NCBI GenBank assembly: GCA_034411995.1
Contig: DAOUME010000030.1
Location: 47,409-111,408 of the forward strand
Reading direction: 5' to 3'
Length of the DNA stretch: 64,000 nt
Origin: Anaerolineae bacterium
GTDB lineage: Bacteria; Chloroflexota; Anaerolineae; UBA7937; B3-Chlor
Positions 15,363 through 47,665 of the stretch are shown piece by piece. Numbering within the stretch: the stretch's first letter is position 1; each line of letters starts with the position of its first letter. A program made the translations under genes and the position numbers. Under the pieces are notes generated by a model. It was not told the DNA's origin. It saw only the letters and a program-made list of their open reading frames with translations, and made no database searches.

Positions 15363-16976
15363 TCACTGTCCTGAGGGCCCGTCTTCGAGCTCCTGCACGT
15401 TGCGGACTTTCCTCAGGTACCCCCTCCAACTGACCGCCCATCGAGAGGGATCATCGAGGGCCGTAGCATCAACGGCATGTACAGTGCTCTGGTGAGGCGC
15501 GTTCTTCACAAAAGCAGGGTCGGCATAAGACTCTTTGGAGATTTGAGCCATGATTGAGGCATATTCGTCTAGCTCGTCGCGCGTATATGACTCAGTAGGC
15601 TCCAGAGTGCACGGCTCCGGCACCAGCCAGGGGTGATGGCTGGCGAAGTAGTAAGCGCCAAAGTCGGCCGCTCGCCTTATCACGTCATCCGTGCCAACCC
15701 CCGTGTCTCTGTTCAGTTGTTCCCAGCTATAGCGCACTTGCTCGATTCTGTGCTTGCCCTCGGCGTATGGCGCAGCCATCCCCTTTACTTTCAGCAGCCT
15801 GTTCAGGAGGTAGTTGTTGTTGAGGACAGAGATCTCGGCAACCTCGCGAAGACCATCAGCGCCAAGACTCATCACCCAGGCATAGGACCTCAGAACCACT
15901 GGGGGGACTCCATAGAACGCCCGAATCTTGCCTATTGAGTCAGGCCGATCGTAGTCCAAGGCATAGGTGGTGCCGTCGAACACGACGACTGGGACCGGGA
16001 GAAATCTGGCAAGCCCGTTGCCCACGCCAACTGCACCGACCGCTGGCCCGCTGCAACCGTGTGGTGAGGAGAAGGTCTTGTGCAGATTGAAGTGACAGAG
16101 GTCAAAACCAGCATCGGCCGCCCGTGTAACGCCCAGTATTCCGTTGGCGTTAGCCTGATCGTAGAAACACAACCCACCCGCTTCGTGGACCGCCCTCACG
16201 AATTCCGCGATCTTGGGGTTGTAGATCCCGGTATCCTCAGGGTTGGTGATCATCAGCCCAGCGGTCCGCTCCGAGACCGCTGCCTTCAAGGCCTTCAGAT
16301 CGGGATAGCCATCTTCATCCGGGTAGATGGTGATGACTTTGAATCCTGCTGTCCTGGGGCAGGCTGCGTCAGATGGATGAGAGAAGATGGTCGTGAGCAT
16401 CTCGTCTCGTTGACCTCGCTCACCCCTCGATTCATGGTACGCGCGGATGATGGACGCAGCGGTGTATATGGCCGCCGATCCTCCGCCGGGCTGCAGCGTG
16501 AACTCCTGCATGCCCGAGATCTCTTTCAGCATCTGTTTGAACTCGTACATGATTTGCAGTATGCCCTGGACAGTCTCCACACCCTGCAGAGGGTGGATGT
16601 CCGCCATCTCAGGCATGCGCACAAACTGCTCATTTACCTTGGGACTATACTTCATCGTGCACGTCCCGAGACCGAGATCGATGATCAGATCGGTCCCCAA
16701 GGTTTCCTGAGACAGCCTCAGGTAGTGTCTCAATACCTGGGCCTGCGATAGCTCCGGAAGCCCAGGAGGTGTGGTCCTCCTGAGGTTGTCTGGCAGTGTA
16801 TCCAGCGGATCACCGACCTCCTCCACAATGCCTTCCTCTATCTCCGGAAGAAGGATTCCACGCTGTCCCTCACTGCCCAACTCGAAGATGATGGGTTCGT
16901 CCCACTTGGCCTGATGGAACCGCCTGGGCCATCGTCCACGGCTCGCGTCCTGTCCTGTGCCTGCATCCTCAATCAT
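15363..16976 (-). CDS. gcvPB: Glycine dehydrogenase (decarboxylating) subunit-2-like PLP enzyme (GcvPB family, divergent)
   Basis: 537 aa. The PLP-lysine block reads CHFNLHKTFSSPHGCSGPAVG, where canonical P-proteins read NLHKTF..PHGGGGPG. ATGA start/stop overlap with the upstream gene. Confidence 0.8.
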   Translation of the reverse strand: MIEDAGTGQDASRGRWPRRFHQAKWDEPIIFELGSEGQRGILLPEIEEGIVEEVGDPLDTLPDNLRRTTPPGLPELSQAQVLRHYLRLSQETLGTDLIIDLGLGTCTMKYSPKVNEQFVRMPEMADIHPLQGVETVQGILQIMYEFKQMLKEISGMQEFTLQPGGGSAAIYTAASIIRAYHESRGERGQRDEMLTTIFSHPSDAACPRTAGFKVITIYPDEDGYPDLKALKAAVSERTAGLMITNPEDTGIYNPKIAEFVRAVHEAGGLCFYDQANANGILGVTRAADAGFDLCHFNLHKTFSSPHGCSGPAVGAVGVGNGLARFLPVPVVVFDGTTYALDYDRPDSIGKIRAFYGVPPVVLRSYAWVMSLGADGLREVAEISVLNNNYLLNRLLKVKGMAAPYAEGKHRIEQVRYSWEQLNRDTGVGTDDVIRRAADFGAYYFASHHPWLVPEPCTLEPTESYTRDELDEYASIMAQISKESYADPAFVKNAPHQSTVHAVDATALDDPSRWAVSWRGYLRKVRNVQELEDGPSGQ

Positions 16977-18370
16977 CGGGTGACCTCCTCTAGAGCATCT
17001 GCCAGCCTGTCGATGTCCTGCTTGGTGTGAACCTCAGTCACGCAGTACAAGGCACACCCGGCCAACTCTTCGAATTCCCGCGACAAGCTCTTGCCGCCGA
17101 AGATGCGCCGCTCCAACAGACCCTTGTTCACCTCGTCTACGCTCTTGCCGGTTCCTTCAAAACTCACCACGAACTCCTTGAAGTGGGGCGCCTTGAAGAC
17201 TGGAGCGGTGACACCGTCTATCTTGTTCAACTGCCTCATCGCGTAGTGACATCGGGACATCACATTCTCGCCAAGATCCACCATCCCCTGCGGTCCCATG
17301 AGCGCCAGATAGACGCCAGCTGTGATGCCCCACAGTGCCGCCGCCGTCCCTACCCACTCCTTGCCTTGCTCCCTCACTGCGAAGTGGGTTCTCTCGAAGG
17401 CGACGTCGCCAAAGCCGTACTCGCCCGGTGCTGCTGTAGGAGTGATGCCGAACAGGCGGGACGGGTACTCCCCAACGTATCTCTCGTCGTCGTGAGTGGC
17501 GATGAAGCCCCCCTGACCACCGCCGAAATGCATATGCATGCCCAAGGGCTGAATGTCACCACAGGCGATGTCCGCTCCATACTCGGCTGGCGGGGTGATC
17601 ACTCCCAGGGACGACGGATCCACTCCCACGACACAGAGGGCGCCCTGCTCGTGGGCTATTCCGGCGATCTCCTCTCCCTGAGTCTCCACGAAGCCCAGAT
17701 ATGAAGGGTTCTCGAAGTACACCGCCGCCGTCTTCGAAGAGACCTCTCGCCCCAGCATGCCGAGGTCCATCTGGCCAGTCTGGAGATCGAAGTCCACGAA
17801 CCTGATGTCGATGTTGGGTTTGCAGAAGTCCTTCACTTTGAGGACCATGTCGCAGCCAAGACCTCTCGTCAATACGACCTCGCGCCGACCCGTGATTCGG
17901 CACGCCATGCATAGGGAGGTGGCTGCAGCCTGAAGCCCATCGTAGGTGGGCACGTTGACCACCTCCATGTTGAGAAGCTCAGCCATCATGCTGGTATACT
18001 CGAAGAGAGCCTGATACTTGCCGTGGTCTGTGTAGGGTCCACCCTCGTACGCAGTCAAGAACTCGCCTCGCTGGTTCACCTCGTCACACACGGCAGGGAC
18101 ATAGTGCTGATAGCATCCCGCCCCCAGGAAGCTCAGATTCGGCCCGCACGGCTGGTTCTTCCTGAGGATCGACTCGATATGTCGCTTGAGGGCATACTCA
18201 GAGGTGATGGCTTCGGGTAGATTCATCCTGCGCTTGAGCCGGAGTTCCTCGGGCACGTCCTCATAGAACTCGCCAATGGACTCCGCCCCAATCTCTTGCA
18301 GCATCTCTTCTACCGTGGACGGCACTGAATTGGGGATGTAAGGGTGAGCCTTCTTCATGTTACTCTTCAT
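16973..18370 (-). CDS. gcvPA: Glycine dehydrogenase (decarboxylating) subunit-1-like protein (GcvPA family, divergent)
   Basis: 465 aa. YIPNS...EMLQEIG and FLGAGCYQHYVPAV match GcvPA, but the canonical AYTPYQPE(I/V)SQG block reads AYEGGPYTDHGKYQ. Confidence 0.8.
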   Translation of the reverse strand: MKSNMKKAHPYIPNSVPSTVEEMLQEIGAESIGEFYEDVPEELRLKRRMNLPEAITSEYALKRHIESILRKNQPCGPNLSFLGAGCYQHYVPAVCDEVNQRGEFLTAYEGGPYTDHGKYQALFEYTSMMAELLNMEVVNVPTYDGLQAAATSLCMACRITGRREVVLTRGLGCDMVLKVKDFCKPNIDIRFVDFDLQTGQMDLGMLGREVSSKTAAVYFENPSYLGFVETQGEEIAGIAHEQGALCVVGVDPSSLGVITPPAEYGADIACGDIQPLGMHMHFGGGQGGFIATHDDERYVGEYPSRLFGITPTAAPGEYGFGDVAFERTHFAVREQGKEWVGTAAALWGITAGVYLALMGPQGMVDLGENVMSRCHYAMRQLNKIDGVTAPVFKAPHFKEFVVSFEGTGKSVDEVNKGLLERRIFGGKSLSREFEELAGCALYCVTEVHTKQDIDRLADALEEVTR

Positions 18371-26495: not shown

Positions 26496-28400
26496 CTAGC
26501 CTGTGGTCGGGGCCAGGGCCCCGATTCCCAGGAGCTCCAATGTCCTCTCTTCGGGGACCCCAGTGAGCAGGTTCCAGCCGTGCAGGCCGTAGTACTGGTC
26601 TAACATCCCGGCCAGAGTAGCCTCGTCGGTCACAAGCCCTCCCAGGCGACCGGAGCGCACCGGCTCGTTCATCATCCGCCAGGGTAGCTTGTCATGCTCG
26701 CGACGGGCGCCCTCGCGAACGTTGAAGCACCTTTCCAGGGTTACGATCCGCCGCCCGGCCGTCATCAGCTCCTCTTCGCTGAACTCCATGCCCAGGGCGA
26801 GGCCAAACAGCCTGGCCATGTTCTTAGGATTAACTCCGTAGGCCGCGGTCGTACTGAAGGCACAGAAGCCCAAGGCATCGCTGGCGGCATAGCAGTCCTC
26901 GTGCCAGCGGACGATTTCCGCTCTCTTGTCCACGAGGGTAGAATCAGCGTATCGGTCATCCCCCGTAATCTCCCGAATCAGGGCCCGGGCTTCAGGCGTG
27001 CCTCCAAACTCCGCAAGGCACTCCGTCATCAGGTGGTCCGGGCCTCTAGGATTCACGGCGAAGGCCAGCGCATATCCTTTGGCCATCCGCGTGTCCACGG
27101 CTGATTGCTCCAGCCCCTTGGCCTGTACCGCCCATTTCCACGAGTCGCCTTCCACGCGCTGGGCGGCCCGGCGAACTCCGTTGGCCAACAAATCACCCAG
27201 CCCTTGCTCGCGGAGAGCTATCCGCCTGATCAGATCTAGTTCGCTCTCTACATTGCCAAACTGCAGATCCAGGCCATCGCTCCATTCTTCCTTCAACAGC
27301 CCCCTATCTGTGCACTCCATGGCCCACGAGATGACATGACCTGTAGAGATCGTGTCCAAGCCATAGTCGTTGCACAACTGGTTGGCCTTGATCACGCCCT
27401 CTATGTCCACCGTACCGCACTGCGCGCCCAGGGCACAGACGCTTTCGTATTCTGGCCCGGCGTCCTGAACCAGGCCATAGCGATGCTCCTTGGTGCGGAC
27501 ATAGCGATGGCAGGCGATGGAACAAGAGAAGCACGACTCTCGACCGACAAGATAGCCTTGCTGTTCGAGGTACTGTCCACCGATCTTCTCTGCTCCATCG
27601 ATTCCGACACGACTGAAATTGTAAGATGCGAGTTCGCCCGCCTCGTTGGCAGGCGCTACATCGCCCGCGGTGCCCCAGTTGAAGAGCCTCTCCGAGGTAG
27701 TGTCCTCAGCCAGCTCGCTGCGGGTGCGGGCTGCCAAGGTGGCGAATTCCTGTCCTTGGGCCACCCGTAGGCCACCGCTGCCCCGCACAGCAACGGCTTT
27801 GAGGTTCTTCGACCCCATCACTGCCCCGACGCCACCCCGACTCGCCGAGTTGAAGAGGGAGAAGATAATAGAGGCGAATAGCACCCGGTTCTCGCCAGCG
27901 GGTCCGATGACGGCGGTCTGAATCTCCTCATCGCCCAGTTCTTGCTTGATGAGGCGGTCCGCCTCCCGGGTGCCGCATCCCCAGAGGTGACGGGCGTCAC
28001 GGATTGCCACTTCTCCATCGTCTATCCACAGGTAGACGGGATGCACAGCCTGGCCCCTGATCGCGAGGTAGTCATAGCCAGCGTATTTCAACTCGGCACC
28101 CAGATGGCCCCCCGCGCTTACTTTGAGGTAGAGACCCGTGGCGGGACCTTTGCAGGTCACGCAGCTGCGACCGGCAGAGGGCGCACTTGTGCCCGTCAAT
28201 GACCCCGTGCTAAGAACCAACACGTTCTCGGCACCCAGCGGATCTATGCCTGGCGCAAGCCGTTCATACAGGAGCTTGGCAGCAATACCCCTGCCACCCA
28301 GAAAGGTGAGCAAGTCACCAGGCTCAACCCGTTCGACCTTCGTCTCCCGGGAGGTCAATTCCACATTGAGTACTCGCTGTTCCCCCAGGTCTCTGATCAT
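26496..28400 (-). CDS. Aldehyde:ferredoxin oxidoreductase family tungsto/molybdopterin enzyme (canonical motifs)
   Basis: 634 aa. [4Fe-4S] motif CFSCSIAC (C-x2-C-x3-C), GPEYES, LCNDYGLDTISTG, DALGFCAF and the C-terminal YYGLHGWN block. Confidence 0.9.
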   Translation of the reverse strand: MIRDLGEQRVLNVELTSRETKVERVEPGDLLTFLGGRGIAAKLLYERLAPGIDPLGAENVLVLSTGSLTGTSAPSAGRSCVTCKGPATGLYLKVSAGGHLGAELKYAGYDYLAIRGQAVHPVYLWIDDGEVAIRDARHLWGCGTREADRLIKQELGDEEIQTAVIGPAGENRVLFASIIFSLFNSASRGGVGAVMGSKNLKAVAVRGSGGLRVAQGQEFATLAARTRSELAEDTTSERLFNWGTAGDVAPANEAGELASYNFSRVGIDGAEKIGGQYLEQQGYLVGRESCFSCSIACHRYVRTKEHRYGLVQDAGPEYESVCALGAQCGTVDIEGVIKANQLCNDYGLDTISTGHVISWAMECTDRGLLKEEWSDGLDLQFGNVESELDLIRRIALREQGLGDLLANGVRRAAQRVEGDSWKWAVQAKGLEQSAVDTRMAKGYALAFAVNPRGPDHLMTECLAEFGGTPEARALIREITGDDRYADSTLVDKRAEIVRWHEDCYAASDALGFCAFSTTAAYGVNPKNMARLFGLALGMEFSEEELMTAGRRIVTLERCFNVREGARREHDKLPWRMMNEPVRSGRLGGLVTDEATLAGMLDQYYGLHGWNLLTGVPEERTLELLGIGALAPTTG

Positions 28401-28410
28401 GGTTCCGGTT

Positions 28411-28902
28411 TCAGCTCCGGCCCTCGGCTATCACGTAGGTCTCAGCGGTGACTCCAGGCTTATGCTGTGCTACATCCCGGATGGTGACTACCTTCAGCGC
28501 GCCGGGGATACAGTTGGCCACACAGGCAGGTTCCCCGTCGCACAGATCGCAGATCATGGCCACGCCCTTCTCGTCATGGAGACTCACGGCACCTAACGGA
28601 CAGGCCCTAACGCACTCCCCGCAGCCGATACACGCCTCCTCATCGATCCGCACCACGGGCACGGTATGGTCAAGGTAGGCTGCGTGGGAGGGACAGGCCT
28701 GGACACAGGCAAGGCGAGTGCAGCTCACGCAGGCAACCGGGACAGTCACACCTCGATCCATCACACGCACAATGCGTATCCGCGAAAGCGCGGGCGAAAA
28801 GAACCCCTCGTGAGCGAAAGAACACACCAGCTCACACACCCTGCAAGCGGTGCATTTCTCCACGTCGACGCCCAGGCCACTGCTCATGACTCGGAAGCTC
28901 AC
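28411..28902 (-). CDS. Poly-[4Fe-4S] ferredoxin-like electron-transfer subunit (AorA/DmsB-like, four Cys groups)
   Basis: CTACRVCELVC; CVSCTRLACVQACP; CIGCGECVRACP; CDLCDGEPACVANC. GTGA start/stop overlap with the upstream flavoprotein gene. Confidence 0.8.
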   Translation of the reverse strand: MSFRVMSSGLGVDVEKCTACRVCELVCSFAHEGFFSPALSRIRIVRVMDRGVTVPVACVSCTRLACVQACPSHAAYLDHTVPVVRIDEEACIGCGECVRACPLGAVSLHDEKGVAMICDLCDGEPACVANCIPGALKVVTIRDVAQHKPGVTAETYVIAEGRS

Positions 28903-29639
28903 AGCTCGGCGGAAGGGAGTCGGCTCAAGAACGGACCGAAGTTGCCGTCCTCGACCAGCATGTCACGACAGGCCATACCCCCGGCCTGAACGATCATGGC
29001 CACTTGGACGACACGCTTGCCCAGACTCTGCGCCGCCGCCACCGCCGCTTGCGCGTCCAGGTCCCCTTCCTCGTACAGACGGCGTAGGCCATCCTTGCGA
29101 AGCGTGTTGCGAGTCCATCCGGCCGCTCCCAGGTAGGACTGCCACTCATCTCCCGAGACCGGCAGACAACTCATCAGCACTGCGTGATTGATCAGGTAGG
29201 ACATGACTTGTTCCTGTCCGGCGAAGACACAGCCGCCCTGCACGGCGACGCCAACGACTTTGAGGTTCTTGGCGTCGATGGCCTCAGCGCCTCCAGACGC
29301 GTAGACCATGCTATTCCCAAGCCTGTCTATGAAGGCTTTCAACTGGGCCGGTATGGCCATGTTGTACACCGGTACGGAATAGATGATCGCATCCGCCGCA
29401 TGCCATTTGTCTCGAAGCTCCTGGAAGTCGTCCTCGGTCGCACACTCGCCGGTCTTGCTGCAGCGATCACAGGCGATGCACGGCGCGATCTGTTTTCCGG
29501 CTAGCGAGAACGTCTGGGCATCCACAAGGTCAGGAGCGACGGCCACCGCCCCTTTGATCACGCACTTGAGAAGGTAGTTGCTGTTGCCCTTCTTGCGCGG
29601 GCTACCACAGATACCCAGCAGTTTGATGCGTCTCACCAT
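28899..29639 (-). CDS. Iron-sulfur flavoprotein (Isf)-like flavodoxin-fold protein
   Basis: IKLLGICGSPRKKGNS flavodoxin-like N-terminus plus the compact CIACDRCSKTGEC (C-x2-C-x2-C-x5-C) motif. Track ORF 28899..29687 trimmed to ATG 29639 (or GTG 29636), with GGGAGG immediately upstream. Confidence 0.7.
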   Translation of the reverse strand: MVRRIKLLGICGSPRKKGNSNYLLKCVIKGAVAVAPDLVDAQTFSLAGKQIAPCIACDRCSKTGECATEDDFQELRDKWHAADAIIYSVPVYNMAIPAQLKAFIDRLGNSMVYASGGAEAIDAKNLKVVGVAVQGGCVFAGQEQVMSYLINHAVLMSCLPVSGDEWQSYLGAAGWTRNTLRKDGLRRLYEEGDLDAQAAVAAAQSLGKRVVQVAMIVQAGGMACRDMLVEDGNFGPFLSRLPSAEL

Positions 29640-29846
29640 GACCTCCCATCTAGGCCAATGGACCCCCTGGAGGAGGCTCCTGCTCACTGATCGGTAAGGG
29701 AGCGACCCCTATGGCCGCGCAGCAAGGAATAGTCGACTCCGGCCCTCCAATTGTGGGGCGTGTGCAGCCAAACTCAGTCCCCGACACAGCGTCCCGCCTT
29801 GAAGGGGCCCTGGTGCCGGTGACGAGGGAGGACAGACTGGTCCCGC

Positions 29847-30350
29847 CTAGGCACTCGGCAACGCCACCAGGCGTCTTGCGCCCGCCACGTCTCTGAGCCG
29901 ATCTGCTGCCTGCCTCTGCTTCGTGCTACGTTGTTCTTCGACCTCTGCGTACTTCAAGGCTCCATAGACACAGAACCTGACACACAGAGGATCGCCGTCG
30001 CATAGGTCGCATTTGAACACTCGGCTGTGTGTGCTGTCGAAGGCCATCGCGCCGAAAGGGCAGACCGCGATACACATCCTGCAACCGATACACTTCTCAT
30101 AATCGACAGACACCCTTCCCAGGGAGCCGTCACGCGAGATGGCACCTACAGGGCAGATGGAGGCACAAGGGGCAGACTCACAGTGAGCACACGTGATCGG
30201 CACGCCCTGGCCTGGCATCTCCCACTGGATGATCGAGATCCGGCTAAGACTCGGACTGATTGCCCTCTCGTGGTGGATGGAACACGCCATCTCACAAGTC
30301 CGGCAACCAACACACTTCTCGTAGTCGATGACCAGTTGCTTAGGCATCAC
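29847..30350 (-). CDS. Poly-[4Fe-4S] ferredoxin-like electron-transfer subunit (four Cys groups)
   Basis: CVGCRTCEMAC; CAHCESAPCASICP; CIGCRMCIAVCP; CDLCDGDPLCVRFC. Overlaps the upstream AOR stop by 11 nt. Confidence 0.8.
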   Translation of the reverse strand: MMPKQLVIDYEKCVGCRTCEMACSIHHERAISPSLSRISIIQWEMPGQGVPITCAHCESAPCASICPVGAISRDGSLGRVSVDYEKCIGCRMCIAVCPFGAMAFDSTHSRVFKCDLCDGDPLCVRFCVYGALKYAEVEEQRSTKQRQAADRLRDVAGARRLVALPSA

Positions 30351-32268
30351 TTGTTACCTGCTCCCGGGAGTTGTCACCCTGCTCAAGTTGGCGCTCGAAG
30401 GTCTCCCATTCTTGCGAGAGGCCGAGGTTGTGGAAAGTCTCTCTCATGGGCACTCCGTCCTCATCCCACCCACGGAGCGCATAGTACTCGCTGAGCATCC
30501 GCTGAAACTCCGCCGTGTCAAGCCGCTCACCCTTGAACCGCCCCCCCGGCACGGCTGTCTCGAAGAGACGTTTCGGAAAACCGTCGTCTGCTCTGCGTAC
30601 ACCCCTTATAGTGTTGAATGCTCTCTCCAAGGTCTTCACTCTCCTGGCCGCTAGGAGCAATTCGTCCTCGGTAGTATCCTGCCCAGTGGCCAGGGAGAAG
30701 AGCTTCGCGGGAACCTCCAGCGAGCGCGTGATCGACCAGGGGATAAGCCATTGGCACATCCCCAGCAGGTCCACAGCGATACTACGATCCTCGTAGTCCG
30801 CAACCATGGGAGCTTTTTTCTCGTAGGACGTAGGATCTAGCACCCGGCTCGTGCCGTACTGCTGGGCAGCCCAGCGAGCAGCTCCCTCCTGGTCACCCCA
30901 CAAGGCATAGTCGATGCTCCCTCCCTCTGCCTGGTTCCCTGCGTTCACAGCCGCGGCCAGCGCCATCGATTTGTAGGCCCGCACATCATACTGCTCCATC
31001 TCCATACCCTTCACCACCATGGCGCACTCTTCTGCTCCAGGACCAATCTCGCGGGCTGCGGCCTGTACCCCGTTCTTGAAGAGCCGTCCGAACCCCTCTT
31101 GCCTTCCTATCTTGTGTATCGTGGACAAGATGGCCGTCTCATCCCCTCTCTCCATGGGGATGCCATCGGTATCCCTGGCATCTATGATGCCCCTGTGATA
31201 AAGCTCCATCAGGAAGGAGATGATATTGCCGGTGGCAGTGATATCCAGCCCGTAGGCGTTGCAGAGATAGGTAGCGTGAAACATCACCTTGCGGTCGTTG
31301 TTCCACACGTTGCTGGCGAACGACCCCCAACCGTTGCACTTTGTCATACCGTGACCGATGCCGGGAACGTGGAACATGTGGAAGTGATTAACAGGGCATC
31401 CAAAACACCCGTACTGCCCCACGGCAAAACGATCATAGAAACCCTCTGGAGGACCGAAGGATCCCACCTCGTCCCAACTAGCGTCGTCCGTTTCCCAGTT
31501 GCCGAGGGGATCCTCGTTGAGTCCGGACCCCAGAGTATACATGTCGCCTACGCCGCCTGCTGCTTCCCGGCGCATGCCTGGATGATCGCGCAGCCATTTC
31601 TGGGTCTCTCGGCAGGCAGCAACGAACTGTTCCGGCTGGGCAAGTGTGATCTGGCCTGTCCCCCTGATGGCCACGGCCTTCAGGTTCTTGGAACCCATAA
31701 TCGCCCCGAACCCGTACCGCCCGGCGGCACTTCCCATTCCAGTGATCAGACAAGCAAAGTTCACCAGGCTCTCACCCGCGGGGCCTATGGACACGACCTC
31801 TAGGGGGGTCCCCAGCTCCTCCCGTAAGCGTCCGGCCGTCTCCCGGGTATCTTGGTGCCAGAGGTGCTCAGCGTCTCTGATCTCCACCGCTTGATCCTGG
31901 ATGTGCAAGTAGACTGGCACTTCAGACCTTCCCTGGATAGCCAGGGCATCATAGCCGGCGTGCCGAAGCGAGGCGCCCAGAGATCCTCCGATTCCGGCGC
32001 TGCCCATGAGGCCGTGGGGGGACATGGCCATCACTTTGGTCCGAGAAGAAGACGGTGCCAGGGTGCCGCTCAGTACGCCGGGGCCGAAGAAGAGTATGTT
32101 GGCCGGATCGTATGAGCGTACTTCGCGGCCCACCTCATCGAAGAGGATCTTGGCACCTACGCCCCTACCCCCGATCCACGATTTGCTGTAGGGCTGTGTA
32201 TCATCGGCGCTCCAAGACGCGCTAGACAAATCTACCCTAAGGATTCGACCAGACCACCCGTACGGCAT
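30340..32268 (-). CDS. AOR-family pterin enzyme, variant subtype (altered cluster and active-site motifs)
   Basis: 642 aa. AOR-family blocks WSGRILRVDLS, LCNAYGLDITATG, DLLGMCQW and YYALRGWDEDGVP are present. The cluster motif reads CFGCPVNH, and GPEYE is replaced by GMTKCNGWG. Confidence 0.85.
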   Translation of the reverse strand: MPYGWSGRILRVDLSSASWSADDTQPYSKSWIGGRGVGAKILFDEVGREVRSYDPANILFFGPGVLSGTLAPSSSRTKVMAMSPHGLMGSAGIGGSLGASLRHAGYDALAIQGRSEVPVYLHIQDQAVEIRDAEHLWHQDTRETAGRLREELGTPLEVVSIGPAGESLVNFACLITGMGSAAGRYGFGAIMGSKNLKAVAIRGTGQITLAQPEQFVAACRETQKWLRDHPGMRREAAGGVGDMYTLGSGLNEDPLGNWETDDASWDEVGSFGPPEGFYDRFAVGQYGCFGCPVNHFHMFHVPGIGHGMTKCNGWGSFASNVWNNDRKVMFHATYLCNAYGLDITATGNIISFLMELYHRGIIDARDTDGIPMERGDETAILSTIHKIGRQEGFGRLFKNGVQAAAREIGPGAEECAMVVKGMEMEQYDVRAYKSMALAAAVNAGNQAEGGSIDYALWGDQEGAARWAAQQYGTSRVLDPTSYEKKAPMVADYEDRSIAVDLLGMCQWLIPWSITRSLEVPAKLFSLATGQDTTEDELLLAARRVKTLERAFNTIRGVRRADDGFPKRLFETAVPGGRFKGERLDTAEFQRMLSEYYALRGWDEDGVPMRETFHNLGLSQEWETFERQLEQGDNSREQVTSDA

Positions 32269-32483
32269 GTTCCTCTCCGCGCCTGAAAGTCGCTAAGCAA
32301 TTCCATCCCAACAGAGCGCTCCGAATGCTGGCTCTGTGAACCGCTCCCGAGGCTCCCACTCCGGGCTCCTGCTCGGCTGATCATTGGTGCGCTGGCCTGC
32401 ACGTAGGACCCCAATGTTGGAGCGAACAGGCCGACCCATAGCAGTGGCAGCATGCACACCCCTCATAGTCTAAACGCAGCGGC

Positions 32484-34439
32484 CTACGTATCTGTCTGCA
32501 CCCGTTGCGAGAAGTCCTCATTCTGACCAAGAGGACCCTGGAACGTCTCCCATTCGGCAGAGAGGCCAAGCTCGCGGAAAGTCTGCTCAGTGGGTACGCC
32601 CTCTTCGTCCCAACCGCGCAAGGCATAGTATTCGCTGAGCATCTGCTCGAACTTCTCCCTGTCCAGTCTCTGACCTTTGTGCACACCGTCGGGGACCGCT
32701 GTTTCGAAGAGTCGGCGAGGAAGTGTGTGCTGTTTGCGCGCTGTGCCCCTCTTGACGTTAAACGCCCTCTCCAGCGTCTTGATCCTCTGCGCCGCCGCCA
32801 AGAGGTCGTCCTCACTGAAGTCCTTTCCGGTGGCCATGGACAGGAGTCTCGCCGGCAGTTCCAGCGAGGTAGTGATTGACCACGGGATCAGCCAACGGCA
32901 GGTGCCCACGATGTCCACGGCCCGGCACAGGTTTTCATGATCCCAAACCGAGATCGCCTTACCTTCGTACGATGTGGCGGGGGGAACGGTCTCCGATCCG
33001 TAAAGCGCCTTGGCCCATCTCTTCAACTCCCGCTGGTCCACGCCTCCGAACAGAGCGTTGTAGTCAAAGGCGATGCCTTCGGCGACACCACCGCTATCTA
33101 TCGCTGCGATCAACGCCATGGACTTGAACGCTCGAACTTCGCATTGCTCCATTTCCTCCCCATTGACCACCATCGCGCACTCCTCGGCGCCTTTGCCGAT
33201 TTCCTGGGCCGCACCCCGCACGCCGTTCTTGAACAGCCTACCGAACCCCTCTTGCTTCCCAATCTTGTGGATGGTCGAGAGAACCGCACGTTCGTCGCCT
33301 CGCCCCATGGGAATGCCGTCGGTATCCTCTTCGGTGATCATCCCTCGCTGATAGAGTTCCATGAGAAAAGATATGGCACCGCCCGCCGCAGTGATGTTCA
33401 AGCCATAGCGGTTGCACAGGATGTTGGCATGCAACATCAGCTTCCGATCATTGTTCCACACGTTGCCGGCGAAGGTCCCCCATCCCCAGCACTTGGTGGT
33501 TCCACTACCCACACCGGGCAAGTAGAAGACATGAAAATGGCTCACCGGGCAGCCCAGGCAACCATACTGATGCGTGGCATAGTCGTTCCAGAATTCTTCC
33601 TCTCCTTCGAACGCCTTCTGGAAGCCGCCGAGCCGGTCCCAACTGGCATCCACGGCTTCCCAGTTACCTATGGGAAACTGGCCGATCTGCTGCGCATCGC
33701 CCAGCCAATGCCGGTCGCCCCCGTATTCACGGGCCTCCGGTATCATGCCGGGGTGCTCTCTGAGCCACCTGTGGGCTTCCTCGCAAGCCGCCGTGAACGC
33801 CTCGGGATCGGCGACGCGTACCTCTCGAGTTCCGTCGACGGCCACGGCCTTGAGGTTCTTGGACCCCATGACGGCACCCAGCCCATGCCGTCCTGCCACA
33901 CTTCCCATGCCAGTTACTATGGATCCAGATGTCACGAGATGCTCACCGGCCGGCCCGATGCACACGATCTCCACAGAGTTCCCCATCTCTTCCCTGATGA
34001 GCCGTTGCGTCTCCTGCGTGTCCTTGCCCCAGAGTTGGCCGGCATCCTTCAATTCAACGCAGTCATCCCGGATGCGCAGATAGACTGGCCGTTCGGCAGC
34101 CCCTTCGATGATCAGGCAGTCATAGCCAGCCCGTCTTATCGCTGCGCCCGCGAACCCGCCAATGCCAGAACTCGCCACCAAGCCGCTCGGAGCCACGGAG
34201 GTGATCTTCATCCTGGCGGTGGAGGGGGCAAGAGTGCCTGTCAGGACTCCCGGGGCAAGACAGAGCAGATTCTCCGGGTCAAAAGCCGATGTCGTAGGAG
34301 CAACCCCGTCATACATGGCCTTGACGCTGATGCCCCTTCCACCAATGAACAAGGGTGTATACGGCATCGAATCCTCAGTCCAGGATCGGTTTTCCGAGAG
34401 ATTTACTCTTAGTACCTTGCCTGACCATCCTAACGGCAT
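32484..34439 (-). CDS. AOR-family pterin enzyme, variant subtype (tandem paralogue of 30340-32268)
   Basis: 651 aa. It shows the same deviations as its neighbour: CLGCPVSH and GTTKCWGWG. LCNRYGLNITAAG, DIVGTCRW and YYALRGWDEEGVP are retained. Confidence 0.85.
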   Translation of the reverse strand: MPLGWSGKVLRVNLSENRSWTEDSMPYTPLFIGGRGISVKAMYDGVAPTTSAFDPENLLCLAPGVLTGTLAPSTARMKITSVAPSGLVASSGIGGFAGAAIRRAGYDCLIIEGAAERPVYLRIRDDCVELKDAGQLWGKDTQETQRLIREEMGNSVEIVCIGPAGEHLVTSGSIVTGMGSVAGRHGLGAVMGSKNLKAVAVDGTREVRVADPEAFTAACEEAHRWLREHPGMIPEAREYGGDRHWLGDAQQIGQFPIGNWEAVDASWDRLGGFQKAFEGEEEFWNDYATHQYGCLGCPVSHFHVFYLPGVGSGTTKCWGWGTFAGNVWNNDRKLMLHANILCNRYGLNITAAGGAISFLMELYQRGMITEEDTDGIPMGRGDERAVLSTIHKIGKQEGFGRLFKNGVRGAAQEIGKGAEECAMVVNGEEMEQCEVRAFKSMALIAAIDSGGVAEGIAFDYNALFGGVDQRELKRWAKALYGSETVPPATSYEGKAISVWDHENLCRAVDIVGTCRWLIPWSITTSLELPARLLSMATGKDFSEDDLLAAAQRIKTLERAFNVKRGTARKQHTLPRRLFETAVPDGVHKGQRLDREKFEQMLSEYYALRGWDEEGVPTEQTFRELGLSAEWETFQGPLGQNEDFSQRVQTDT

Positions 34440-34556: not shown

Positions 34557-35231
34557 TCAAGCCTCGCCAGGTGATGAATCCTGGCGGTCATCACCCCTAC
34601 CGAGGATGTCAAGTACCCTCTCTCTCCCGTTGGTCACATGCTCTCGCAGTCGGAGGTTTGCCATTTCTGAGTCCCCCTTCTCGAGAGCCTCGATGATGGC
34701 CTTGTGCTCCGCAATGGAGACGCGAGCACCGCCAGCCGCCTGGTATGCAGGATAGAGGAATCGCGCCAGGGCACTTTGTATCCGCTCCGTCGAGCAGACC
34801 AGGTACCGGTTGCCGGTGCATTGGGCGATCGTGGTGTGGAACTCGACGTCCAACTCGGTGAGCTCGTAGCAGTCCACGTCGTTACTGGCCTCTTCCTGAC
34901 GGGAGACTATGCTGCGCAGGCGTTCGAGTTGTTGCGGCCCGATCCGGCTGGAGACCCGTGCTATGCACGCAGAGCCGATGTCATACATAACGTCATGTAT
35001 CTCCTGGCAGTCCACGATGCTGAGGGGCTGAATCAAGACACCCCTGCGCGGTGGGAGCGTGAGTAGATACTGTTGGCTTAGTTGCTGAAGAGCTTCTCTC
35101 AAGGGGGTTCTGCTACAGCCCAGCGCCTTTGATAGCAGTACCTCGCTTACCAGGCCGCCCGGCGCCAATTCACCTGTGATAATCATCCTGCGAAGCTCCC
35201 GAGCAACGGTGTCGCTAGCTGATCTGCTCAT
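34557..35231 (-). CDS. GntR-family transcriptional regulator with FCD domain
   Basis: 224 aa. wHTH block LVSEVLLSKALGCSRTPLREALQQLSQQYLLT followed by a helical FCD-type C-domain. First gene of the AOR cluster. Confidence 0.85.
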   Translation of the reverse strand: MSRSASDTVARELRRMIITGELAPGGLVSEVLLSKALGCSRTPLREALQQLSQQYLLTLPPRRGVLIQPLSIVDCQEIHDVMYDIGSACIARVSSRIGPQQLERLRSIVSRQEEASNDVDCYELTELDVEFHTTIAQCTGNRYLVCSTERIQSALARFLYPAYQAAGGARVSIAEHKAIIEALEKGDSEMANLRLREHVTNGRERVLDILGRGDDRQDSSPGEA

Positions 35232-42439: not shown

Positions 42440-43421
42440 ATTAGCCTCCTCGAAGACTGAAAAGAAAAGACACTAGCAGAGCTGCCCTCGTGGACACCAG
42501 CCCAGAATCGCTGGGTTGGCTGCCCACGTCACTGCTTGGCCACCACGGTCATCACCGCGCCTCCAGGACCTCGGCGACAGAGAGCAAGATGACGCCCCTT
42601 CCTCTCGGAATCGCTGCCGACGACCGTGGCCACAAGCTCTGATCCGTGCATGACGACTGCTGGACAGAATTCGCATTTGCAGGTCGGTGGCCTGACCAGA
42701 CCATCACATGACGGGCCAGCATGCCTGACCACGAGCCTCAGGGGCGCGCGTACAGGTCACGGCCATCCATGACAAACAGACGGTATTCTACAGAGAGGTG
42801 CAAGCTAAGTCAAGTACCAAGGGTATCTGGCCAGAATGACGTACCCAGGGTTCGCGTGCGGGAGGGTCGGGTCAGTCTACAAAGACTGCGCCCGCTCGCC
42901 CTGCGAAGGGAGAAAGGATACACTCCCGCCACAGAGCCAAGGGGCGAGGAACAGGATCAATGGGCGAGGTAACGCTCAAGGAGTACAGACCAGGGCAGGC
43001 TGATGCCTCGACGACGAGACGTGAAGCCAGCGCGGCTCATTCTAGCTGACCTCGGTTCTCCATAGCGTTAGGCACGGATCGCGCATACACTCTTCTTCCT
43101 GGAGGGACCCATGCCTTCGAGCTAGCGGTCACGGTGGACAACGGTATGCAAGAGAGGGAGGCCACGGCACCGGCAAGATGTGCGGCCGCTGGGGCTCTAG
43201 CATTGAAGGCAGGCTGAGGAGCATCAGCCAACGGAAACACCAGGGCCTGATACCGCATCGGCACACTCCAGGTGACGTCGGCATCTTGCAGCAGGAGGAC
43301 ACGATCGTGTATGACGAAAGAGAGTAGCATCATCGTGGACAAGTCGGCAGGCCAGGTGGATTTTCCCACTCGCTCACCATAGATGGTGAAGCTGCCCAGA
43401 CAACGGAGAGGACATAGGATT

Positions 43422-44687
43422 GTGAGCTATACGGAACTCTATCGCATCAGGCAGAGATTCTCTGAACAAGCATTGGAAGACGTCGAAGCGGCGCTGGAGG
43501 CCGAAGTCGCCAGAACCTCATTGCTCGAGGGGATTGGGCAGGGGTCTAGGGTGGTCATTGGCGCTGGTTCGCGTGGAATCCCGAACTACCCTACAGTAAT
43601 CAGAAAGCTCGTGGAGCTTGTGGAGGACAGAGGAGCTTCGGCACTCATCTTGCCAGCCATGGGCTCCCACGGGGGCGGGCATGGCGCCGGACAGGTGCAG
43701 GTGCTGGCAGAGCTGGGCATCACCCCTGAGAGTGTGGGAGCCCCTATCGTGGAGACGATGGTGGTGACGTCCCTCGGCGAGACGCCGAGCGGGATCCCTG
43801 TCTTCGCAGACCAAACGCTCACAGAAGCAGACGGCGTGATCATCGTAAACAGGATCAAGGAACATACCGAGTTCTGCGGGCGCATCGAGAGCGGTCTGCT
43901 CAAGATGATGGCTATCGGACTGGGAAGGTATCGAGGCGCTGTGGCAACTCATGAATACGCTGTAAAGCTTGGATACGAGCAGGCCATCAGAGAAGTGTCG
44001 CTCAGGTGCGTTGAGGAACTTCCCCTTCTCGGGGGGATCGCTCTCGTGGACACGCCTGACAGCAGGACCGCAGCGCTCGAGGCCGTGTTGCCCGCAGACA
44101 TGGAGGCGGCGGAGACCAGGCTCTTGCAGCTAGCTCACCAACTGACACCGAGACTCCCGCTGGATGCGGTGGACGTGTTGATCGTCGACCAGATGGGAAA
44201 GAACGTGAGTGGTACGGGGATGGACACCAAAGTGATCGGGCGGGTCATGAACATCTACGAAGAAGAACCAACCAATCCCCACATCACCCGCATCCTCGTA
44301 AGGGACTTGACACCAGAGACGGCTGGAAACGCGCTAGGGATTGGATTGGCAGACTACACGACACAGAGGCTAGTCGACAAGATCGATTTCGAGGTCACTG
44401 TCCTGAACGCCCTCACGGCCATCGCCCCGGAGAAGGCGCGGGTGCCGATCACCTTCTCAAATGACCAGCAAGCCCTGACTGCGGCTCTACGGACCATCGG
44501 GCCCAAGGATGAGGATTCCATCCGCCTGCTTTGGATACGGAACACTTCCTCCTTGGTGGAGCTGGTGGTGTCGTCGGCAGCGTATGCTGCCATCGACCCT
44601 GCCCGGATCGCCAGCGTACAGGGTCCCATGCCGATGAGGTTCGACGAGGAGCACAACCTGATCCCACCAACGGCCATTGGCCCGTAG
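43422..44687 (+). CDS. LarA-N (DUF2088) 'lactate racemase domain'-like protein
   Basis: Track ORF is 43383..44687; the likely start is GTG 43422 (GGAGAGGA 9 nt upstream). GAGSRGI, LPAMGSHGGG..GQ...LAELGIT and NRIKEHTEF.GRIESGLLKMMAIGLG match my recollection of this family. Catalytic LarA motifs were not verified. Confidence 0.5.
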   Translation: MSYTELYRIRQRFSEQALEDVEAALEAEVARTSLLEGIGQGSRVVIGAGSRGIPNYPTVIRKLVELVEDRGASALILPAMGSHGGGHGAGQVQVLAELGITPESVGAPIVETMVVTSLGETPSGIPVFADQTLTEADGVIIVNRIKEHTEFCGRIESGLLKMMAIGLGRYRGAVATHEYAVKLGYEQAIREVSLRCVEELPLLGGIALVDTPDSRTAALEAVLPADMEAAETRLLQLAHQLTPRLPLDAVDVLIVDQMGKNVSGTGMDTKVIGRVMNIYEEEPTNPHITRILVRDLTPETAGNALGIGLADYTTQRLVDKIDFEVTVLNALTAIAPEKARVPITFSNDQQALTAALRTIGPKDEDSIRLLWIRNTSSLVELVVSSAAYAAIDPARIASVQGPMPMRFDEEHNLIPPTAIGP

Positions 44688-45171: not shown

Positions 45172-46494
45172 TCACGCCTTCAAGTGGAGCCGGGTCTCGA
45201 GGAAGGCTTCCAGCTCAGCCGTCATCTGCGCATCATCCCACTCCCGCGCATCGACGGTGTCTGCCCGGAGCTCCAACACCGGGATGCCGACGTCCTCGAA
45301 GGTCTTCCTTATGAAGTAGGAGCCCTGGACCGCCTGCGTGCAACTGTTGGAGACCAAATGCACCACGCCGTCGATCCCGCTGTTCCGGGCCTCCTTCAGG
45401 TACCACTCGGTGTTCCAGGGTGGCATGTGCAGCATGTCCTCCATCCCCACGAACCGGCTGGCCAGAGCCCGGAGCGGCTCACCTCCGTACCGAGCATAAG
45501 CATCTGCCGCGAGGGCCAGATAGATCGACCACACGAAAACCGCCCCGTAGCGCTCCTCGAAGTGCTGATAGAAGCCGAGGTTGAACCAGAGGCCGGTCCC
45601 CAGCCACATGAGACGGACGAGCTCGTTCTCGCAGGCAACCAGACCCCGCTGCACCAGGTCCCTCGTCTCTTCGTAGAATCCGCAGGCGGCATCCACCGCC
45701 CACTGCGTGCCACGATGCCACTGGGGGATCATCACGCTGGGCATCTGATCCGTGACAGTGAGGGGCGCCGGTACCGTCTTGGCAATCAGATCGCGCGTCC
45801 GCACGTTGTACTCTTCTTGCTCATTGACCAGTTCCATAACCCGCCGGAATCTGGTCTCGCTGAAAGCCTTCCCGGTGGTAGCCTCCAGGAAGCGGATCAG
45901 TCCCTCCAGCTCTTCTACCATCACGTCCAGGCGGTGCGGCTCGAAGAGTTCCTCCCACTCCCACGCCGTCTTCTCCCACCACCTCTCGGGGACCTCCAGC
46001 GGCACGGTGCTCTCCAGCGGGTAGAACGGTATCCCAAACTCTCGCGACCAGAGCTCGAAGATCTTGGCCTGAGCGTCGCAAGTGAGGCGCGCGACCGCCA
46101 GGGTCGGTCGGGGCAGTCCGCCCCAGGGACCGTTCTCAGGATGAGGATCAAAGGCGGAGGCCAGAGAGAGCGAGCAGTAGCGACAGAGATCCTGGCGATA
46201 GCCCCTCCCGTTCAGAAGGCCCAGGTAGTACGGAGACATCTGCTTGGCCGAGCAGACCGCCGCCCACCACTGGTTGACCACGTAGGGGATGTCCATCGCG
46301 CGGAAGATCTCCTGGGGAACGTCGGCGTTGACGATGGCGAGAGGCTCACCCTCCGATACCCGTTCCCGCGTCCGCGCGAACCACTCTCTCTGGTAGTTGT
46401 TCGCCTCAGTGGCCGAACGTAAGCGCTTGACACTCGCACGACCGCTCCAGTTAGCGTTTCGTGTGTCTGGTGCCGAGTTCGCCCGCTCACTCAT
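45172..46494 (-). CDS. 2-hydroxyacyl-CoA dehydratase / benzoyl-CoA reductase BcrC-BadD-HgdB family protein (subunit 2)
   Basis: Track ORF trimmed to ATG 46494 (ATGAGTGA overlap with the upstream stop). IVNADVPQEIFRAMDIPYV and CRYCSLSL are typical family blocks. Confidence 0.8.
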   Translation of the reverse strand: MSERANSAPDTRNANWSGRASVKRLRSATEANNYQREWFARTRERVSEGEPLAIVNADVPQEIFRAMDIPYVVNQWWAAVCSAKQMSPYYLGLLNGRGYRQDLCRYCSLSLASAFDPHPENGPWGGLPRPTLAVARLTCDAQAKIFELWSREFGIPFYPLESTVPLEVPERWWEKTAWEWEELFEPHRLDVMVEELEGLIRFLEATTGKAFSETRFRRVMELVNEQEEYNVRTRDLIAKTVPAPLTVTDQMPSVMIPQWHRGTQWAVDAACGFYEETRDLVQRGLVACENELVRLMWLGTGLWFNLGFYQHFEERYGAVFVWSIYLALAADAYARYGGEPLRALASRFVGMEDMLHMPPWNTEWYLKEARNSGIDGVVHLVSNSCTQAVQGSYFIRKTFEDVGIPVLELRADTVDAREWDDAQMTAELEAFLETRLHLKA

Positions 46495-47665
46495 GACTCG
46501 ACACCTCACGACCCGCTCCTCGAGCAGGCTGGTCCCCTCCAGCGATGGACTTGACAAAAGCCTCCACCCGGTCGCGCAACTCGTCTGTCTTGACAAGCTT
46601 GTACGGTTGGCGATCGAGGAGCAGCACCGGGATCCCCTCCGACTCCAGCGCCCGCCGCTGCTCGGGGAAGTCCCACGACGGCGCATCGTCGGCATCGTAG
46701 ATGAAAGCGATCACGCCCTGGGCATCGGTGGCGTGCACGCCCTCCAACAACGCAGTGACCCGCTCCGACACCGTGGACTGGTGCGCACCTGGCTGTCGCA
46801 GGTGGTAGCGATCCACGATGCCGTCGATGGGGTCCGGGCTGATGTCGATCTGGCCAGCCGAATGCCTGTCGCCCCAGTCGTGGTCCTCGCCCACCACGAC
46901 CGCTCCGCACGACTCCACCAACTCATAGAACTGCACATGGTCTTGCGCGCTGCCAGTGACGAAGATCCGCACCCCAGAAAGCGGATCGCTCGCCCCAGCC
47001 TCCTCCAAGAACGCGGCCAGGAGACGGCTATGGCCGTGGCGTGGCAAGAACATCGACGCGCCGATGACCTCTAGCGCTTGTACGCCGCTCACGCGCGGAG
47101 GGCCGGGCGCACGCAACCCCGCCAGTTCCCGCAGCAAGCGGCGGTTTTCCTCGAAAACCCCGATAGCCTCGACGACCTCCTCATCGGCGATTTCTCGCCC
47201 ACACCACTGCTCGATCACGGACTTGAGATCGCGCGCGCGTTCGCGGTTGTATAGAGTGCTGGTTCGACGCCGTGTGTGGAGAAGATCGAAGAAGTACAGA
47301 TCGGGGATGGGGAGACTCGACTCGGCCATACGCAACGCGCGCAGGTAGTAGAACATCCGGACCAGCGCATCCGAGGAGCTTGCCACCACGAGGTGGTCCA
47401 GGTACGAATACGACCCATCGATGATCCGCAAGAACTGCGATCTCGCGCGAGGGTCAAAAGCCTGCTCTATGTAGCGATCAGCAACGTGGAGGTCACTTTC
47501 GGGATCGCCGCACACGCGGACCGGCAGTATCCCGGCGGCGAGCAGCAACTCCTCAGGGACATCGCTTCCCAAGCAGCCCGCCACCTGGCCGCCTTGTTCC
47601 TTCCACTCCAGAGCGGCCCGGTCTCTTTGTCGGTAGGCGCGGGCCAGCTCCCGCAAGACGCTCAC
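46487..47665 (-). CDS. 2-hydroxyacyl-CoA dehydratase / benzoyl-CoA reductase BcrC-BadD-HgdB family protein (subunit 1)
   Basis: 392 aa. The WKEQGGQVAGCLGSDVPEELLLAAGILPVRV N-terminus is typical of the family. The GTG start has no SD of its own and overlaps the stop of an 18-codon upstream ORF (GTGA). Confidence 0.8.
   Translation of the reverse strand: MSVLRELARAYRQRDRAALEWKEQGGQVAGCLGSDVPEELLLAAGILPVRVCGDPESDLHVADRYIEQAFDPRARSQFLRIIDGSYSYLDHLVVASSSDALVRMFYYLRALRMAESSLPIPDLYFFDLLHTRRRTSTLYNRERARDLKSVIEQWCGREIADEEVVEAIGVFEENRRLLRELAGLRAPGPPRVSGVQALEVIGASMFLPRHGHSRLLAAFLEEAGASDPLSGVRIFVTGSAQDHVQFYELVESCGAVVVGEDHDWGDRHSAGQIDISPDPIDGIVDRYHLRQPGAHQSTVSERVTALLEGVHATDAQGVIAFIYDADDAPSWDFPEQRRALESEGIPVLLLDRQPYKLVKTDELRDRVEAFVKSIAGGDQPARGAGREVSSHE

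Follow-up and report, generated by a model that had tools for sequence, protein, structure and literature searches.

We have analysed two tandem genes in a stretch of 64,000 nucleotides from an Anaerolineae bacterium (contig DAOUME010000030.1, positions 47,409 to 111,408; the whole stretch is called the window below). The genes lie on the minus strand, as do the features of their gene cluster described here, and encode AOR-A (32484..34439, 651 aa) and AOR-B (30340..32268, 642 aa), large subunits of the aldehyde ferredoxin oxidoreductase (AOR)/WOR family. The conclusion that emerges, to which we would give a probability of about 0.7, is that these are functional paralogues from an uncharacterised clade of the family, with a cysteine as ligand to the metal, a His-type iron-sulfur cluster, a substrate other than an aldehyde and a polyferredoxin as partner. 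Membership of the family, its fold, the cofactor-binding residues, the homologous cysteine, the loss of most of the second shell of the active site, and a C-x2-C-x3-H motif with its distal cysteine are established at the level of sequence; the chemistry of the two proteins probably differs from aldehyde oxidation. The AOR/WOR family, its Cys-ligated branch and the existence of altered cluster ligation were known before. What appears to be new is the histidine at the third cluster position and the clade that carries it.

The PF02730 (AFOR_N) and PF01314 (AFOR_C) domains span the full length of AOR-A, AOR-B and a canonical AOR large subunit encoded nearby (26496..28400, 634 aa), with E-values of 1e-65 to 1e-86 for both domains in AOR-A and AOR-B. 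The tandem proteins share 58% identity, and each shares ~34% with the canonical AOR. AOR-A was modelled with AlphaFold2 from a 72-sequence alignment; the model has a mean predicted local distance difference test score (pLDDT) of 93.6 and a predicted template-modelling score (pTM) of 0.94, and it adopts the three-domain fold of the AORs. Comparison by Foldseek gave TM scores of 0.82-0.86 to the top seven solved members of the family (AOR, FOR and BamB, including 9mqx, 9g7j, 1aor, 4z3w and 8c0z), the values being 0.84-0.85 for BamB and 0.78-0.79 for WOR5; outside the AOR family there was no match with E < 0.5. The nearest genome is a Chloroflexota metagenome-assembled genome (MAG; JAUWLF010000002.1), with amino-acid identities of 88% for AOR-A and 83% for AOR-B. 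The ratio of non-synonymous to synonymous substitution rates (dN/dS) against the Chloroflexota MAG orthologues is 0.09 for AOR-A and 0.14 for AOR-B. These values reflect purifying selection, and thus both copies are being maintained.

Histidine in the cluster motif

The canonical AOR carries the motifs CFSCSIAC (27510-27533) and GPEYES (27441-27458). Where it has the first of these, AOR-A reads CLGCPVSH (residues 294-301, 33537..33560) and AOR-B reads CFGCPVNH (residues 288-295, 31384..31407). An initial annotation of the DNA had drawn attention to these motifs and to GTTKCWGWG and GMTKCNGWG blocks that follow them, and all were found in the open reading frames (ORFs) of the three proteins. 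The fourth cluster cysteine lies in GTCRW of AOR-A (residues 512-516, 32892-32906) and GMCQW of AOR-B (residues 503-507, 30748-30762). Both proteins therefore depart from the family motif C-x2-C-x3-C...C in that the third cysteine is histidine, a variant of the motif and not its absence.

Is the histidine a true substitution, or the artefact of an insertion beside a cysteine at the real ligand position? We aligned 185 sequences of the family using MAFFT, and made pairwise HMMER alignments to three solved AORs. The numbering was checked on Cys322 of BamB, Cys336 of YdhV, and Cys288, Cys291, Cys295, Cys494, Thr243, Glu313, Tyr427 and His448 of the Pyrococcus furiosus AOR (PfAOR). In both kinds of alignment the C-x2-C-x3-H motif is contiguous and matches Cys288, Cys291 and Cys295 of PfAOR without a gap, placing His301 of AOR-A at the position of Cys295. 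The substitution is real.

Of the 120 best homologues in the databases, 115 are full-length, with 43-93% identity to AOR-A, and these represented the clade. Nearly all derive from Chloroflexota/Dehalococcoidia metagenomes or MAGs, and some from Deltaproteobacteria. The third motif position is occupied by histidine in 106 of the 115 and by arginine in nine. The first, second and fourth cluster cysteines (the last equivalent to Cys494 of PfAOR) are present in every sequence; the only invariant cysteines of the clade are the CxxC pair, this distal cysteine and the cysteine of the TKC block. We infer that the proximal [4Fe-4S] cluster is ligated by three cysteines and one histidine, the predicted ligands being C294, C297, H301 and C514 in AOR-A and C288, C291, H295 and C505 in AOR-B. 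By comparison with other His-ligated clusters, the histidine could shift the potential of the cluster, or couple electrons to protons.

The nine arginine variants (P0060, P0070, P0077, P0080, P0089, P0092, P0097, P0099 and P0112) form a single subclade. Each has an extra cysteine downstream of the arginine, two residues away in P0060 and four residues away in the other eight, which have the form CxxCPxxRxxxC. Since a nearby cysteine has been gained in every arginine variant, this is the pattern expected if a fourth ligand to the cluster is required at the site, and arginine plus the new cysteine seems to supply the third cluster ligand in another way, arrived at independently. We also considered a covariation of arginine at this position with aspartate in place of the lysine that precedes the metal-ligand cysteine, each of which occurs in nine sequences. 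The aspartate variants all have histidine and the arginine variants all have lysine, and the idea was rejected.

The arginine variants bear in two ways on another explanation, that the histidine is not a ligand and that the cluster is a [3Fe-4S] or incomplete one, possibly in paralogues that are poorly active or regulatory. Arginine cannot ligate iron, yet it stands at the histidine position in these nine members, and WOR4 of P. furiosus, with glycine at the position of one cysteine, contains a [3Fe-4S] cluster and is not known to have any activity (PMC12096430). AOR-A has in addition an unusual GLN in a pterin block and a decayed polyferredoxin gene of its own, both described below. Against this, every arginine variant gained its nearby cysteine, and the histidine is kept in 106 of 115 sequences that range down to 43% identity. 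Both copies are under strong purifying selection with their other cofactor residues conserved, and the asparagine at the GLD position has a counterpart in YdhV, a protein with a bis-molybdopterin (bis-MPT) cofactor (PMC12096430). We consider a non-ligating histidine unlikely.

The metal-ligand cysteine and the second shell

The TKC block is GTTKCWGWG in AOR-A (residues 313-321, 33477..33503) and GMTKCNGWG in AOR-B (residues 307-315, 31324..31350). The initial annotation likened its cysteine to the one that ligates tungsten in BamB, and the alignment upholds the comparison. BamB (PDB 4Z3W) was recovered over residues 6-637 through alignment to L003, a protein of the sister clade. The column of its Cys322 holds Cys317 of AOR-A, Cys311 of AOR-B, Cys336 of YdhV, and cysteine in all 115 clade members. 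The residue before it is lysine in 103 of these, as in the MKC of BamB. YdhV had been listed in the initial annotation only as a target for alignment, with no link made to this cysteine. A metal-ligating cysteine is known only from the clades of BamB (Cys322, W) and YdhV (Cys336, Mo) (PMC12096430), and in BamB the cysteine and a water fill the first coordination shell, shielding the metal from the substrate (PMC12096430). In AOR-A and AOR-B the W or Mo would be held by four dithiolene sulfurs together with Cys317 or Cys311, respectively.

The blocks that contact the pterin and Mg are well conserved. Arg76 is present in 100% of the clade, Asp343 of the GLD block in 98%, Asp489 in 95%, and Gly492 and Cys494 in 100%, while Lys194 and Lys197 (AOR-A numbering) are invariant. 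The claim that both tandem copies keep the pterin blocks holds for AOR-B throughout, and the fourth cluster cysteine is retained by both proteins. It fails at one point in AOR-A, where residues 345-348 are YGLN (33396-33407) in place of the GLD found in AOR-B and all canonical AORs. The asparagine at the position of Asp343 is shared by Escherichia coli YdhV.

The second shell of the aldehyde-oxidising enzymes comprises Thr243, Glu313, Tyr427 and His448 (PfAOR numbering). The canonical AOR of the window keeps the equivalents of Thr243, Glu313 and His448, with valine at the position of Tyr427. In the clade the position of Thr243 is aspartate in 66% of sequences, AOR-A and AOR-B among them, and that of Glu313 is variable (W/C in AOR-A and N/C in AOR-B). 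Tyrosine is found at position 427 in 41% (AOR-B has it; AOR-A has cysteine), and His448 has been lost together with a deletion of two residues (V in AOR-A and Q in AOR-B). Neither AOR-A nor AOR-B thus has the second shell of an aldehyde oxidiser, and the metal of aldehyde-oxidising AORs has no protein ligand where both proteins have the invariant, predicted ligand cysteine. With Thr243, Glu313 and His448 not conserved, and Tyr427 in only 41% of the clade, a loss of aldehyde chemistry is plausible. The second-shell residues are also lacking from the BamB and YdhV clades (PMC12096430), and BamB, which reduces benzoyl-CoA, and the Cys-type enzyme CsWOR41 (see below) are precedents for a non-aldehyde function of Cys-type members. 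The current label of aldehyde ferredoxin oxidoreductase is probably wrong for the genes of this clade.

The alternative is that AOR-A and AOR-B are ordinary aldehyde:ferredoxin oxidoreductase isoenzymes whose motif changes are neutral, the three AORs of the cluster serving different amino-acid-derived aldehydes. The family, the fold and the polyferredoxin partner are those of the aldehyde-oxidising Class II/III enzymes, the genes share a cluster with a canonical AOR and with amino-acid catabolic genes, and most characterised members of the family oxidise aldehydes (PMC13328260, PMC12096430). However, three of the four second-shell residues have gone and the tyrosine persists in a minority of the clade, and the position at which a cysteine shields the metal of BamB from substrate is cysteine without exception. 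Moreover, the Cys-type enzyme CsWOR41 oxidised none of 46 aldehydes (PMC13328260), and bootstrap values of 94-100 set the clade apart from every canonical type. Neutral change in aldehyde-oxidising isoenzymes seems to us quite unlikely.

These bootstrap values come from trees of the 185 sequences, built by neighbour-joining only. The His-type sequences are monophyletic (bootstrap 100), as are all the Cys-ligand types taken together (94). The Cys-ligand superclade holds BamB, YdhV, a Coriobacteriia group, several small groups, a deltaproteobacterial group and the His clade; BamB, grouped with L021, and YdhV sit in branches apart from the His clade. The deltaproteobacterial group (L003-L011 and L033) is probably the sister group to the His clade (bootstrap 66). 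The trees show the predicted Cys-ligand branch to be much broader than BamB and YdhV, and the two proteins do not fall inside a clade of known function. A position inside such a clade, sharing these motifs, was what the initial annotation had named as fatal to its proposal. Among 1.84 billion representatives at 50% identity there are only ~8 His-type clusters, and dozens of other such clusters combine an x-K/S-C block with a normal C-x2-C-x3-C motif. The TKC block on its own is therefore not special to the His clade. With many Cys-ligand clusters and few of the His type, the cysteine ligand is widespread and old, and the histidine is later and confined to one compact clade.

We also examined the idea that AOR-A and AOR-B form an ancient obligate heterodimer. 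Tandem copies from different genomes fall together in a single subclade (P0005 and P0007 are sisters) and the copy number varies from 1 to at least 3, and we rejected it.

The names given to clade members in GenBank are generic or 'hypothetical', apart from one 'putative oxidoreductase YdhV'. Full-text literature searches gave no description of histidine at the third position, of the His-type AOR clade or of BamB-like Chloroflexota enzymes, and neither Dehalococcoidia nor MAG Chloroflexota sequences appear in the supplements of two family-wide reviews.

Gene neighbourhood, electron partners and proposed function

AOR-A and AOR-B belong to a gene cluster at 26.5-35.2 kb of the window, in the order regulator, the two His-type AORs, polyferredoxin, flavoprotein, polyferredoxin and canonical AOR. 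The polyferredoxin that follows AOR-B (29847..30350, 167 aa) resembles the WorS/AorA small subunits, with 16 Cys in four cluster motifs, and its start overlaps the end of the AOR-B gene by 11 nt. Class II WOR enzymes consist of WorL and a small subunit, WorS, with four [4Fe-4S] clusters (PMC13328260), and an adjacent four-cluster subunit of this kind is thus present here. It also recurs in the clade. We inspected eleven other loci with His-type genes, and in ten of them a polyferredoxin of 149-174 aa adjoins the AORs, of which there are usually two to four in tandem.

The 215-bp gap between AOR-A and AOR-B contains the relic of a further polyferredoxin, LRLDYEGCACCHCYGSACSLQHWG (24 codons, 32408..32479), which is 50% identical over 24 aa to the 174-aa polyferredoxin of a related MAG locus, L066 (tblastn). 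In L063, L064 and L066 an intact polyferredoxin gene separates the two AOR genes. In the window ~460 bp of it appear to have been deleted, leaving AOR-A and AOR-B to share the one polyferredoxin that remains.

At the head of the cluster is a GntR/FCD-family transcriptional regulator (34557..35231, PF00392 and PF07729), found at the same position in L066. On the other side of the AOR-B polyferredoxin lies an FMN_red/Flavodoxin_2 flavoprotein (28899..29687) whose compact CIACDRCSKTGEC motif places it with the iron-sulfur flavoproteins; its gene adjoins AOR genes also in L064, L066 and L071. It would offer electrons an alternative to a ferredoxin as carrier. A second polyferredoxin (28411..28902, 163 aa), again with 16 Cys in four cluster motifs, is encoded directly upstream of the canonical AOR, downstream of which come an M29-like protein and then a peptide ATP-binding cassette (ABC) transporter.

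Three loci, L063, L064 and L066, share the layout of the window, with regulator, S9 peptidases, His-type AOR, polyferredoxin, His-type AOR and peptide ABC transporter; in L064 and L066 the flavoprotein, polyferredoxin and canonical AOR are also present ahead of the transporter. Genes for an ATC-hydrolase, S-Me-THD, an M20 peptidase and an aminotransferase lie near the AORs of these close relatives. The neighbourhoods of more distant members contain S-Me-THD, hydantoinase A/B, CN-hydrolase, an Asp/Glu-type racemase, MTTB, saccharopine dehydrogenase, CCG and Fer4_8 pairs, UbiD/UbiX, Oxidored_FMN (old-yellow-enzyme-type) proteins, glycyl radical enzymes and amino-acid transporters. Recurrence within a few kb was counted over seven loci (L063, L064, L067, L068, L069, L070 and L071). 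S-Me-THD (DUF917) and saccharopine dehydrogenase were each found at three, as were pairs of CCG (HdrB-like) and Fer4_8 proteins, with a CCG fragment at a fourth. Other genes near His-type AORs were MTTB, CN-hydrolase, hydantoinase A/B, ATC-hydrolase and MMPL/DUF1302.

The genes that recur in this way may hint at the class of substrate. Their shared theme, which is not uniform, is anaerobic catabolism of peptides, amino acids and N-compounds related to them. The conserved neighbourhood of peptide ABC transporter, S9/M19/M20 peptidases, ATC-hydrolase, S-Me-THD, hydantoinase-type genes and amino-acid enzymes thus points to a substrate derived from the breakdown of peptides, amino acids or N-heterocycles.

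Elsewhere in the window, split genes for the glycine-cleavage P protein, an M19 dipeptidase and a PD40/DPP-IV-like protein occur at 15363-18370 (minus strand) and 2296-7559, and suggest in addition a peptide-fermenting anaerobic member of the Chloroflexota. A separate cluster at 47932-63611 (minus strand) encodes PFL-like glycyl radical enzymes (47932-50394 and 59810-62209) with an activase (50387-51322), an AMP-binding CoA ligase (51363-52916), a second peptide ABC system and a URO-D-like protein, together with a 180-aa ORF (52864-53406) in which a PrpD/MmgE domain is represented by its N-terminal part alone. Glycyl radical enzymes adjoin His-type AORs in L065 and L073. At 45172-46695 (minus strand) there is a lone HGD-D protein (2-hydroxyacyl-CoA dehydratase/BcrBC-like) with no recognisable partner or activator nearby; beside it on the plus strand (43383-44687) is a protein with a weak match to the LarA N-terminal domain. 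The initial annotation had raised a connection of the AORs with CoA ligases or BcrBC-like genes. This was not borne out, as the nearest HGD-D and CoA ligase are 11-17 kb away in other clusters, and the association does not recur at the eleven loci. The observation that BamD-I-type genes are missing was correct for all 53 of the larger ORFs of the window, among which there is no protein of the HdrA, HdrBC/CCG, MvhD or NuoEFG type.

We propose that electrons would pass between the proximal cluster of AOR-A or AOR-B and the adjoining four-cluster polyferredoxin in a WorL-WorS unit of Class II type, the substrate being something other than an aldehyde. From the polyferredoxin there could be onward exchange with both the iron-sulfur flavoprotein and the gene cluster's own canonical, aldehyde-oxidising AOR. 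Our best guess as to direction, and the least secure step, is that AOR-A and AOR-B are low-potential reductases fed with electrons by the canonical AOR; this reductive reading comes from the analogy with BamB and the operon context only. The initial annotation had suggested an uncharacterised subfamily with reductive in place of aldehyde-oxidising chemistry. Its first part agrees with the distinct clade and with the plausible loss of aldehyde chemistry that follows from a largely missing second shell, but its reductive part stays at the level of that guess.

A bolder form of the proposal would make the two proteins a third functional type after BamB and YdhV, a soluble WorL-WorS reductase with a 3Cys/1His cluster. 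The 3Cys/1His ligation would tune electron transfer or couple it to protons, in a novel reduction at low potential, by which anaerobic Chloroflexota would act on a substrate derived from peptides, amino acids or N-heterocycles. Within a single operon an aldehyde-oxidising AOR would then feed a second W enzyme, giving a Stickland-like internal redox loop. We put this forward tentatively, as a possibility that is more doubtful than probable.

Several observations weigh against our preferred reading of functional, Cys-ligated, non-aldehyde paralogues. The cluster could be of the [3Fe-4S] type, as in WOR4. No tup, mod or molybdenum cofactor (Moco) genes were found among the ORFs of the window, and there is no bifurcating HdrA/MvhD or NuoEFG module, unlike BamB and the L003 locus. 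The neighbourhoods of distant members are heterogeneous, so that the clade probably spans several substrates, and the link to peptides may be limited to the subclade of the window.

A physiological role has been defined for only five of 92 AOR/WOR clades (PMC13328260). The His clade appears as a well-delimited group, mostly from uncultured Chloroflexota/Dehalococcoidia with some Deltaproteobacteria, in which ligation of the proximal cluster is predicted to have changed to 3Cys/1His. It offers a natural experiment on the effect of His ligation on electron and proton transfer beside a pyranopterin centre. With two subunits and a predicted cysteine ligand, its enzymes should be more tractable than BamB, with its complex of 1 MDa, or YdhV, with its membrane-linked system. 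They are candidates for anaerobic redox steps, as yet unassigned, in the degradation of peptides and amino acids by abundant subsurface Chloroflexota.

Comparison with known systems

BamB is among the closest known systems. AOR-A and AOR-B share with it the AOR-family fold, a Lys-Cys dipeptide that in BamB includes the W-ligating C322, the loss of the second shell, and membership of the same superclade. Could they be BamB orthologues, each serving as catalytic subunit in a class II reductase of benzoyl-CoA or another aryl-CoA that works independently of ATP? Apart from these similarities, a few distant members of the clade lie near UbiD/UbiX, old-yellow-enzyme-type flavoprotein and CCG genes, which recall anaerobic aromatic degradation. 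However, BamB is in a different branch of the tree and is only 26% identical to AOR-A, which scores 234 bits against it, less than against five ordinary AOR/FOR structures (239-300 bits). BamB has a normal cluster motif, CYNCPMKC. Its Zn-site and proton-conduit residues Glu251, His255, Glu257 and His260 correspond to W, A, Q and Q in AOR-A (in an ungapped register from the G-x...N-W anchors) and are unconserved in the clade. Its partners are BamC, with three clusters, and the bifurcating module BamDEFGHI, where AOR-A and AOR-B have a four-cluster protein, and there are no BamDEFGHI-type (HdrA/BC-, MvhD- or NuoEFG-like) genes in the window, L063, L064 or L066. Orthology with BamB is very unlikely.

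YdhV of E. coli, a functionally unassigned Mo-bis-MPT protein of Class V WOR (clade 41), likewise has its ligand, Cys336, in the column of the TKC cysteine and no AOR second shell. It has aspartate at the position of Thr243, and at the GLD position the same asparagine as AOR-A. That AOR-A and AOR-B might themselves be YdhV orthologues, i.e., molybdenum-preferring, membrane-associated enzymes of Class V, is also suggested by their best NCBIfam match (PRK09849, YdhV) and by the GenBank name of the one homologue. Yet the matches to PRK09849 reach 269 and 252 bits for AOR-A and AOR-B, far below the cut-off of 868 bits, and their best stretch is confined to the N-terminal domain. YdhV has 700 aa compared with 642-651 aa, with large insertions and a normal CHSCPIRC motif, and it occupies another branch. 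The membrane-linked ydh operon also encodes YdhY, W, X, U and T, and no homologues of YdhW, X, U or T, Tat (twin-arginine translocation) signal or membrane subunit were found in the window. We regard this identification as extremely improbable.

The nearest relatives with a normal cluster motif are those of the deltaproteobacterial clade, from Syntrophobacter, Desulfomonilaceae and Desulfatiglandales MAGs, with 39-42% identity to AOR-A (453-487 bits). Their ligand position reads T/S-C and a polyferredoxin of the four-cluster type adjoins them, but the cluster motif is CFCCPNRC, with its third cysteine, and the ligand cysteine is followed by Glu-Pro-Trp. At the L003 locus (2563-13659) we observed genes for a 1218-aa HdrA-like flavoprotein, MvhD (FlpD), an Oxidored_q6 hydrogenase-small-subunit-like protein, a polyferredoxin, a 446-aa protein with no Pfam match and two small NIR_SIR (sulfite-reductase-like) proteins. 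A cluster of this type may encode an unstudied electron-bifurcating W-enzyme complex, and its gene set accords with redox chemistry at low potential in that region of the tree.

The AORs in the strict sense (PfAOR, 1AOR; Aromatoleum AorB, 8C0Z; and the Clostridium autoethanogenum enzyme, 9G7J) have the same domains, pterin/Mg blocks, distal Cys494 and position of the cluster motif as AOR-A and AOR-B, and those of bacteria have a polyferredoxin subunit as well. They differ in that their W has no protein ligand, Thr243, Glu313, Tyr427 and His448 are kept, and the cluster is ligated by four cysteines.

Finally, WOR5/ASOR of P. furiosus, which also has a four-cluster WorS partner, carries aspartate at the first cysteine of the motif (DYGCPVNC), and has a Glu/His second shell of Tyr199, Glu328, His446 and His469 (PMC12096430). 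In both WOR5 and WOR4 the position replaced and the residue that replaces it are other than in AOR-A and AOR-B, and neither has a cysteine ligand to the metal. Nevertheless, the aspartate of WOR5 and the glycine of WOR4 indicate that the AOR/WOR family tolerates altered ligation of its cluster.

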